64,000 nt of DNA from a virus (Duplodnaviria; Heunggongvirae; Uroviricota; Caudoviricetes): IMG/VR virus record IMGVR_UViG_646311923_000012. One strand, 5' to 3'. Position numbers: made by a program. The first letter of the stretch is position 1; every line of letters starts with the position of its first letter. Positions 1 through 3,000 of this stretch are shown here, one piece after another.

Positions 1-3000
1 AAATTAAAATACATTGTATAGGGAGTACTCTGAGGGCCAACAGTAACAGAATTTAGCACTACAGGATTGTGAAACCCTGGCCATAGATGGAAAGATAATG
101 CTATGGCTGATAAAACTATGCCAACTTCATATATAGATTTAGCCCAGGCGTTATATTTCCAGTTGAACTTCAAAATAATAAAAAAAACGATTGTAGCAAC
201 AAAAAATAACACCGACCAATCAATAATATCATTAAGCACAGCCAGGACAACAGACACCGTCAACAATGAAAAAGCCACTACCTTATGCCAACTGAGAGTT
301 GACAGTGACAGTACTAACACAATCCACATAAGCACTCCTTTTATTTAATGATGAAGATTGATTATCAATATTTTCAATTCACCAGGCAACATTTTATCTA
401 CCTTCCACAATACATGACCATCAAAAAATAAACATGTTAATTATAAACACAGAAAACATAACCCTCATCACTATATATCCCTACCGCATATCCATATCTA
501 ACCGGACATTCAGAGCCATAAGCATTCCTTCAATAATACCTTCCGCTTTATAAAGCCTTTTACCAATAAGCCCATCAGAACATCTATGCTTACGTGCAAG
601 AGCCATAAATGTCATTCCACCTACGTAATAATCCACCAACAAATCGTGCAAATACTGATTATTCTTGTTTAATCGTGCCATACAACCACAAATTATCATG
701 GCGTCATCATCAGAACACTGAGGACGTGATTTCACTTTAGTCGGGATTAATCCTTTAAAACCAGCAGCTATCGAGGGCCATGTTACATCTTCATGATTAT
801 TTGCTGCCCATGCCCCCCATCGCTCAAGAACCATCTGGATATCACGCGCCATCGTTACCACCTCTGATTTCGTAAATCTTCACGCCCAGCCGTCCACCTG
901 GCACAGGCTGACCGCGCACAATATTGATTTCATCAAACTGCTCGTCATCAATGAGCACTTCCGCATGCGTCAGCGCATCCAGCGGTGCTTTCAGAATGTT
1001 GTCCAGGTCACGGCGGCGCTTATCCGGTGGTTCTGCAATAATTTTTATTGCCAGCCGTCCGGACAGGCTTAATTTCAGCCGCTGCTGGCGAACAATAAGC
1101 GCCACAGCCCGGCGATAACGCTCACCGGCTTTTGATACAAAATATGTGCTGCCACGACGTCGCCAGTAGGTGTTCACCGTCGGCGGGTAAGGCAAAACAA
1201 ACTCTATACGCATCAGTAACCTCTTTTACCCGAGCACGCCGGTTGCAAAAGCGTGATCAAGAAAACGAAAAATTAAATCAACCTGGGAACCATGCTTTTC
1301 TTCGAACGCCAGCGGATCCGCATGAAGCTCGTTGTGATGCTCCCGACACAGCGGTAGCGTGAAAATATCGTGGGATTTTGTTCCCATTCCACCCTGACCA
1401 TGACCAATCAGATGATGAGGATCGTCCGCTGGCTTACCACAACACGCACACGGCTGTGTCTTTACCCAGCGTGTGTATTTCTCATTTACCCAGCGGCGAC
1501 GTTTAGGTCGTTTCATGAAGGATTCCGGAGACTCCGGATCAACGGCAATGCTGACCACCGTCTTTTCCTGTGGTGGGTTCTGTTGCTGGTGGGTGTGAGG
1601 CGGTAGCGCAATATTTTTTGTGCGCTGCTTCAGTATGCTGGTGGCGGTCTGTTCTCCCGGTATGATGTCGCTTTCACGGTATACGGAGCGGATTTTTTCC
1701 GCCGGTAATCCCAGAGAACGACGCGATACTGCCTCAGGTAATGCGTCCACCACCTGATTGCAGACTGCCCACCAGGATAATTCAGCCAGCGATAATTCCC
1801 GTTCCTGTATGCCATTCATTGCGTGGCGGATGACGTCAATCATCCATGCTGACAGGTTTTGTTGAGCAAGTTGCTCAAGTGATTCGGATGTCTGGTCGCG
1901 CAGCTGGTTGTCGCAGTGCCAGCACAACACCATCGCGCCGGTACCGTAACGATGTATGACAGTTTCGCTGTGATGATAATCACCATGAGGCCACTGGCAG
2001 GATTTAACGTGACGTAATAACCAGTCAGACAGTGCACCAGCGCCACCAGCAGCACGAATCACACGCTCATTGCTGAAAAATGGCAGTAATGATTTATCTT
2101 CCGCCAGCGGCTGGCGAACGGCAGGAACGACCCCGGACGGCAGATTACGCATGCTTTTCGGTTCAGACTCCACCAGCACCCTGCCGCCATGAAATACCCG
2201 CATGGATTCACGGCCTGGCTTAACGATAACCAGACCGAGTTCCGGTACCAGAACAGGTCGAAGTAATACCCGCACATTACCTCCAGATCCGTTGCTGGAA
2301 TGTGCGGGACGGACGCGGTGGCCGTTCGGAGTAAGGGAGCCTGACGGAGATTATCCAGTGACGGTAGTCGAGGCTAAGGGCTTTTTTAACCTCGCATCCG
2401 CGCCTGCGGTAACACTGAATGAGCCATTCGGCCTGTTCTTCAGTGCATGGGGGATGCTGGTACCAGTCAGATTTGAATGCGTGAAAACACCGTCCGCGCC
2501 TGCTGGCAAAGACGGCAGAATCATCAGAATTGTATAATTTGGTATCGTGCGCCATCGGTTGTCTCTGCTGGCGCAGCAGGTGCCAGTTGTTCAGGCTGGC
2601 GTGCGAATTGTAAACCAGAATGCCAGGAAAAAACAAAACCCGCCGAAGCGGGTTAAGTGCGGGTGCGTTGAGGATGCCTGACACATCAGAGGTGGCGAGG
2701 GATTTCTCCCCCGCCAGTCTCTTACTCCTCAGGTTCGTAAGCTGTGAAGACAGCGACCTCCGTCTGGCCGGTTCGGATTCGTACCTCGCAGAGGTCTTTC
2801 CTCGTTACCAGTGCCGTCACTATGACGGTTAAACAGATGACGATCAGGGCGATTAACATCGCCTTTTGCTGCTTCATAGCCTGCTTCTCCTTGCCTTTCG
2901 GCACGTAAGAGGCTAACCTAGATTTGCCGTTCATAGATTGAGCCTCAGATTAATGTTAAGCGTCTTGCAGGACGCGTAATGTTAACTGGGGCTTTTCTCT

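Follow-up and report, generated by a model that had tools for sequence, protein, structure and literature searches.

A predicted CPBP-family intramembrane protease gene directly after the antiterminator gene Q in lambdoid prophages of Escherichia coli

We analysed a 64,000-nucleotide stretch of DNA (the window) from a Caudoviricetes record of IMG/VR (IMGVR_UViG_646311923_000012), at one edge of which an open reading frame (ORF) for a membrane protein is cut off just downstream of an antiterminator gene Q. What does a prophage keep at this position: an unusual holin at the head of the late operon, or a membrane moron? The original prediction, made from the window alone, left the choice between the two. 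It turns out to be half right, in that our analysis supports a membrane moron and not a holin. Taking the best explanation as a whole, we have high confidence that the product is a protease of the CPBP (CAAX protease and bacteriocin-processing, Rce1-like, PF02517) family that spans the inner membrane several times. Three features define the locus within the window.

Window 1..329, minus strand: 5' part (codons 1-109 of 272) of the CPBP gene, ortholog of ECs1085 of the Sakai prophage Sp4 and of WP_000265267.1
Window 335..340, minus strand: Shine-Dalgarno sequence AAGGAG, 5 nt before the ATG, by direct reading of the sequence
Window 481..852, minus strand: Q antiterminator gene, 123 aa (PF06530, E 4.5e-52; PGAP annotation)

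The start codon is the ATG at window 329-327 on the minus strand, preceded by AAGGAG at 340-335 with a spacer of 5 nt. From there the frame runs through 109 stop-free codons and reaches the window edge at base 3; at the base composition of the ORF, the chance of such a run is about 1.6e-3, and that of the full 272 stop-free codons about 1e-7. The G+C content of the coding strand over window 1-329 is 36.8%. An AT-rich minus-strand ORF with a strong ribosome-binding site and a start near 329, open to the edge, is thus exactly what the sequence holds. It had also been credited with at least three hydrophobic segments, which is correct because four helices (residues 2-12, 16-32, 39-56 and 61-79) are predicted among the 109 in-window residues by a high-confidence AlphaFold2 (AF2) model. 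These residues are non-catalytic: they make up the four N-terminal helices and the first part of a conserved loop block. The placement directly after Q stands as well, with the PF06530 antiterminator gene at 481-852 upstream and the ORF first after it.

Many complete E. coli genomes match window positions 1-900 at 100% identity, and a region from E. coli O26:H11 11368 (hereafter L001), in which these positions correspond to 12001-12900, served as the reference for extension. All sequence past the window edge was inferred from such identical DNA of other genomes, rather than from the source genome. In L001, the full ORF comprises 272 codons (11511-12329, minus strand): extension revealed no early stop, left the arrangement of ribosome-binding site and start intact and yielded a 272-aa protein. 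The L001 product is annotated as WP_000265267.1, ‘CPBP family intramembrane glutamic endopeptidase’ (RefSeq/PGAP), and its counterpart in Sakai O157:H7 is ECs_1085 of prophage Sp4, ‘phage CAAX amino terminal protease family protein’. The name CPBP endopeptidase appears in every row among the matches listed. The window ORF is therefore the same gene as ECs1085 and is already annotated, correctly, in hundreds of genomes. Of 5426 complete E. coli genomes, 571 carry it; nearly all copies are at least 99% identical, and conservation at this level extends over 546 genomes of several serotypes. Carriers are mainly O157:H7, O26, O111, O103, O145 and O55:H7. One representative E. coli genome scanned for a chromosomal copy had none, strain K-12 lacks the gene, a search of 50,697 records of sequenced, propagated phages returned no close homolog, and a literature search found no published experiments on the ECs1085 protein.

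Family membership was established with the full protein, which matches PF02517 over residues 169-258 (70.6 bits against a cut-off of 22.4; E 1.4e-19). This catalytic half lies entirely outside the window and was read from the identical L001 DNA. All three family motifs are present, namely EExxxR, which holds the catalytic glutamates, as EESLFR (residues 185-190), FxxxH as FGFYH (214-218) and HxxxN/D as HFGLN (253-257). Across an alignment of 37 homologs sharing 48-84% identity, E185, E186, R190, F214, H218 and H253 are invariant, N257 is kept in at least 90% of the sequences, and residues 81-117, which span the window edge, form a strongly conserved block specific to the family. Judged from these sequences, an active site that is intact and conserved speaks for a functional intramembrane protease. 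PHROGs assigns the protein to a family of unknown function.

The AF2 model, computed from the homolog alignment, shows about nine or ten helices (pLDDT 94.1, pTM 0.90). Using Foldseek, the best match in the PDB was SpdC (6U0O; probability 0.99, TM 0.47/0.51), followed by Rce1 (4CAD; probability 0.87, TM 0.37/0.39); these are the two CPBP-fold proteins of the hit list, and all other hits had a probability of 0.06 or less. The Foldseek E-values are weak (0.04-0.05) and a sequence-profile search of the PDB gave no match even at E = 1, so the fold corroborates the Pfam assignment rather than constituting a standalone proof.

Comparison with these two proteins also delimits what may be transferred from them. 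Rce1 of M. maripaludis (PDB 4CAD), the founding member of PF02517, has the Pfam family and the motifs EExxxR, FxxxH and HxxxN in common with the prophage protein, but identity is only about 16%, the TM-score is 0.37-0.39, and the N-terminal half, including block 81-117, is specific to the enterobacterial family. To our knowledge, prenylated CAAX substrates do not exist in bacteria, and the substrate must therefore differ from that of Rce1. SpdC/LyrA of S. aureus (6U0O, the SagB-SpdC complex), the best structural match with 232 aligned columns, is echoed in the database name ‘lysostaphin resistance A-like protein’ borne by several homologs. SpdC (6U0O; SagB-SpdC) is known as a glucosaminidase partner and not as a protease, whereas the prophage protein, at 14% identity, retains all catalytic residues and has no conserved neighbouring hydrolase partner.

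These properties bear directly on the holin option, in which the ORF would be a holin or dedicated lysis protein that, as the first late-operon gene, makes the membrane lesions releasing endolysin. A membrane protein positioned after Q suits this idea, as does one relative (L101) in which the homolog directly precedes a holin gene. The protein itself does not: its length of 272 aa and its roughly nine or ten helices put it outside the holin range (about 60-150 aa and 1-4 transmembrane segments), it has the conserved active site of a protease with the complete CPBP signature, and comparison with the holin families of Pfam and PHROGs returned no match. The prophage, furthermore, possesses a separate class II holin, which adjoins lysozyme and Rz genes about 4.6 kb downstream.

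L001 6904-7110: class II holin gene, near lysozyme and lysis protein genes
L001 5683-6216: lysozyme gene, in the same lysis cassette as the class II holin

The cassette is about 4.4-4.6 kb from the CPBP gene in L001; the latter thus lies outside it and is not beside the endolysin. Finally, at least 175 species encode a member of the family on the chromosome, as a gene standing by itself and away from phage genes. We reject the holin identity on these grounds and give that reading virtually no credence.

The moron option requires a look at the surrounding prophage, which is lambdoid and has the architecture of an Stx phage without stx. The Q protein of the window is 84% identical to Q of the DLP12/434B qsr' region. 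Between the CPBP gene and the lysis cassette lie first a small TrmB-like ORF, then an AraC-family regulator, followed by tRNA-Ile, two tRNA-Arg genes, the STnc100 sRNA and a SASA-family esterase. The CPBP gene has a GC content of 0.38, against 0.51 for the upstream Q, RusA and DUF968 genes, and three other prophage variants show the same contrast (0.36-0.37 versus 0.50-0.52). A segment common to many phages begins about 85-110 nt past the CPBP stop codon and the small ORF comes after the terminator given below. The arrangement between Q and the shared segment differs among the phages compared.

L001 11369-11354: strong intrinsic terminator-like hairpin, CCCGCCTCTGAGCGGG followed by a T run, about 140 nt after the CPBP stop codon
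Window prophage: the CPBP gene sits between Q and the terminator segment
Stx2_EH2201 and PhiR5_1: Q, then 37 nt, then the shared terminator segment; CPBP gene absent
SfV: Q, then 106 nt, then the terminator (annotated as such); CPBP gene absent
phiP27: a GIY-YIG nuclease gene between Q and the terminator segment; CPBP gene absent

The terminator segment is at the tR' position in the related phages, and the description of the gene as a moron therefore fits: its GC content is 38% against 51%, promoter-like and terminator signals flank it, and it is missing from this slot in related phages. The CPBP gene is compositionally foreign cargo and the first ORF after Q. It occupies the same region as the Q-to-S cargo of other lambdoid phages (stx, nmpC of DLP12/434B, the phiP27 nuclease), and it shows a deviating composition, with promoter-like and terminator signals at its flanks. 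It differs from that cargo in staying with Q over at least 41% protein divergence and with two Q families.

Could the gene be expressed in the lysogen? Scanning the 151-nt spacer between Q and the CPBP gene for consensus matches gave two candidate promoters.

Window 361..389 (L001 12389-12361), minus strand: sigma-70 promoter-like site TTGCCT-17-GATAAT, candidate for PR' or for the gene's own promoter
Window 391..420 (L001 12420-12391), minus strand: overlapping promoter-like site TGGTCA-18-TAAAAT, alternative PR' candidate

The alignment of the variant with 84% identity shows the first site kept as TTGCCA-17-GATAAT, and the 62% and 59% variants have different promoter-like hexamers at a similar position. 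Placement of PR' by homology was abandoned, since the spacers between Q and the next gene in this prophage, 434B/DLP12, phiP27 and the 62% and 59% variants align poorly; the promoter-like sites across these spacers are consensus matches, equivalent in position only. The 151-nt spacer contains no terminator-like hairpin, the first strong terminator being the one that follows the CPBP gene, and transcription without Q is therefore possible. The late promoter PR' of lambdoid phages is found immediately behind Q; in lysogens it fires constitutively, and its transcripts end at tR' (PMC7547250). If one of the spacer sites is PR', the CPBP gene lies between PR' and tR'. In this prophage type, transcription would then begin at a spacer promoter, which is probably the constitutive PR', and in the lysogen it would end at the strong terminator found about 140 nt past the CPBP stop codon, the presumed equivalent of tR'. 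The lysogen would thus produce the protein without needing Q, and induction would raise its output.

Two points restrict this model. In a relative with a lambda-type Q (P0051), both a promoter-like site and a strong terminator are upstream of the CPBP homolog; the gene should therefore be Q-dependent there, and the lysogen-expression model is not universal. In E. coli, H-NS often keeps AT-rich cargo silent, and expression cannot be concluded from a promoter-like sequence. As regards regulatory RNA, an StxS-like sRNA was rejected, StxS accompanying the 144-aa type of Q; Rfam has no family matching the leader or the terminator segment, and the 3' UTR folds no better than shuffled sequences (z -0.16).

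Where did the gene come from? A protein search revealed a full-length family of about 270-276 aa at around 50% identity across the Enterobacterales. We surveyed chromosomes with one genome per species, which gave 175 loci encoding a relative, and examined the best 80 of these 175. None of the 80 had Q or RusA nearby, 44 had modF immediately upstream on the same strand, and the GC content of the gene equalled that of its flanks (median difference +0.004). The gap between modF and the CPBP gene is 150-875 nt (median 245), too wide for a tight operon; a modF-CPBP operon was therefore rejected and the association regarded as synteny. A 5-nt gap in Hafnia is an artefact of a longer start call.

A neighbour-joining tree groups the prophage-type sequences (the window gene, its 84%, 62% and 59% variants and an E. 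albertii protein) into one clade, with a bootstrap of 99/100, nested in the otherwise stand-alone chromosomal family of the Enterobacterales. The four prophage variants differ by up to 41% in protein, all four have 272 codons, and pairwise dN/dS among them is 0.13-0.30; by this measure the prophage copies are under purifying selection. The simplest reading would be a single capture from a lower-GC enterobacterial chromosome, after which the gene would have travelled with Q under purifying selection.

The same data weigh on the suggestion that the gene is inert baggage, captured by chance in a largely defective prophage and since deprived of expression and function. IS elements do occur in Sp4-type prophages, the gene has no known phenotype, and its AT-rich composition makes silencing by H-NS likely on general grounds. 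Inert DNA would hardly keep a 272-codon frame intact in four variants diverging by up to 41%, with dN/dS of 0.13-0.30, invariant catalytic residues and a strong ribosome-binding site, nor be conserved at 99% or more in 546 genomes of several serotypes. We regard inertness as highly improbable.

In the 84%, 62% and 59% variants, the gene immediately upstream is in each case a Q of the PF06530 type with 80-95% identity to the window Q, and the prophages concerned differ in their replication and lysis modules; the 84% variant is followed by stxAB. Q is directly upstream on the same strand in 42 of the 43 evaluable IMG/VR loci, which are not independent because many are near-identical copies. In two further backgrounds, a relative with 55% identity comes after a non-homologous, lambda-type Q (PF03589), and in one of them a holin follows immediately; this relative falls outside the supported prophage clade, which it joined in 21/100 bootstrap replicates. 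With two non-homologous types of Q upstream, the place directly behind Q is therefore conserved for this gene. The CPBP-Q linkage is closer than random insertion of a moron would lead one to expect, and it is the one mildly unexpected point.

Such linkage invites a lytic interpretation, according to which the gene is a Q-dependent late gene with a role in lytic growth and not in lysogenic conversion. Its product could trim a host or phage membrane protein for lysis timing, for envelope remodelling or to save progeny from lysing cells. The first position after Q in both families, PF06530 and PF03589, is consistent with this, and so is L101, where the gene comes after a terminator and directly before the holin; SpdC, the best structural match, works in complex with a peptidoglycan hydrolase according to the title of entry 6U0O. 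The downstream cassettes, however, vary among the variants (a PF04971 holin with a PF00959 lysozyme; PF16931/PF05449 holins with GH108; a PF05106 holin), and no lysis partner is conserved across them. In the window type, cargo genes and tRNAs fill about 4.6 kb before the holin and no terminator precedes the gene. The lack of a close homolog among the 50,697 records of propagated phages also speaks against a lytic function, the chief competitor of a protective role, which we consider unlikely.

Returning to a membrane protease that serves the lysogen, the protein would cleave a membrane or periplasmic peptide to the benefit of its carrier. By analogy, we tentatively suggest that it could shield the lysogen from a peptide toxin that acts on membranes or from an infecting phage, a proposal that is possible, although we would not bet on it. 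The analogy is with the Abi/CPBP bacteriocin self-immunity proteins of Firmicutes, such as PlnI, SkkI and SagE. These belong to the same Pfam family and have the same motif set, and some homologs of the prophage protein are likewise named ‘CAAX amino terminal protease self-immunity’. Being accessory membrane proteins that protect their carrier, the Abi proteins resemble the prophage gene product by analogy only; unlike their genes, the prophage gene has no adjoining bacteriocin gene or cluster. No bacteriocin or toxin gene, and no conserved hydrolase or kinase partner, was found beside the CPBP gene in the prophage or chromosomal loci examined. Bacteriocin immunity deduced from the neighbourhood was accordingly rejected, the called neighbours including no bacteriocin-like gene, and a known anti-phage defence system was likewise rejected, as the PADLOC defence families gave no match at an E-value of 0.1 or better.

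A more specific idea is that the prophage clade represents a phage-adapted intramembrane protease, tied to the late-gene switch and not a random passenger. We judge this improbable, while noting the two forms that it might take: protection of the lysogen (superinfection exclusion) by cleavage of an incoming membrane-active peptide or of a phage injection component, or action on a host or phage membrane protein as late transcription starts. If true, each form would mean that a CPBP protease has a novel function in the phage biology of Gram-negative bacteria.

As found, the gene is ordinary and matters little, and the finding mainly corrects the guess that it encodes a holin. Genes of the ECs1085 type are nevertheless present in most EHEC/STEC lineages (O157:H7, O26, O111, O103, O145 and O55:H7), where they adjoin known virulence regulators, namely a Psr-type AraC regulator and PchA. 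CPBP proteases of Gram-negative bacteria are almost unstudied, and the prophage copy offers a handy route to a substrate.

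In phage phiP27 (L002) another gene separates Q from the shared terminator segment, the stretch 3' of the CPBP gene that also follows Q in related phages:

L002 1250-2479: GIY-YIG nuclease gene, flanked by Q and this segment.

This gene fills the exact slot held in the window prophage by the CPBP gene, which encodes a CPBP/Rce1-like membrane protease. Cargo appears to insert repeatedly at this junction of Q with the terminator segment. The genes that follow were located in L001, a region of E. coli O26:H11 11368 identical to the window at its left edge (window 1-900 corresponds to L001 12001-12900), and are listed in order away from the CPBP gene:

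L001 11369-11354: terminator, in front of the TrmB-like ORF.
L001 11027-11224, minus strand: TrmB-like winged-helix ORF of 65 amino acids (phrog_331; weak PF01978 match).
L001 10176-10889, minus strand: AraC-family regulator of 237 amino acids, two genes after the CPBP gene.
L001 9631-9821, minus strand: sRNA STnc100, a strong Rfam match (138 bits, gathering score 47).

Together the terminator and the TrmB-like ORF make up a module downstream of Q that is conserved in phiP27, SfV and many Stx2 phages. The AraC-family regulator, which lies outside the window, about 1.1-1.8 kb past window position 1, is similar to YdeO (NCBIfam E-value 2.6e-30) and GadX (9e-25), both matches being below the cut-off. 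Its Sakai ortholog is ECs1087, and the naming of this gene is inconsistent in the literature: psrA was assigned to ecs1087 of Sp4 in a 2026 paper (PMC13502914), while PsrA corresponds to z1789 of OI-50 in a review from 2024 (PMC10877973). The STnc100 match directly follows a tRNA-Ile/Arg/Arg cluster, a position that in an Stx phage would be occupied by stx.

Two further ORFs lie within the window itself:

Window 2722-2934, minus strand: Hok/Gef-type toxin ORF with the C-terminal end ...MKQQKAMLIALIVICLTVIVTALVTRKDLCEVRIRTGQTEVAVFTAYEPEE, annotated as hokD in L001.
Window 3482-4255, plus strand: intact AT-rich ORF of 257 amino acids.

The latter gives the CPBP-carrying prophage a second AT-rich cargo gene. 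Strain 11368 has this gene too, under an alpha/beta hydrolase annotation, but there it is interrupted by IS1203 (L001 15483-17568), and the window strain thus differs from 11368.

Outside prophages, many Enterobacterales carry modF upstream of the chromosomal homologs and in the same orientation (L007-L011 and 44 of the best 80 of 175 species-level loci), with gaps of 150-875 nt between modF and the CPBP homolog. The E. coli representative genome was not found among these best 80 loci of the genome scan for CPBP homologs. On viral contigs, a single evaluable locus, from an IMG/VR contig (L147) whose CPBP homolog is 47% identical, has no Q gene upstream. Family members also occur in three Helicobacter genomes (L030, L042 and L087); these share about 50% identity with the enterobacterial proteins, and one of the three clusters with Hafnia in the tree, which suggests horizontal transfer out of Enterobacterales.
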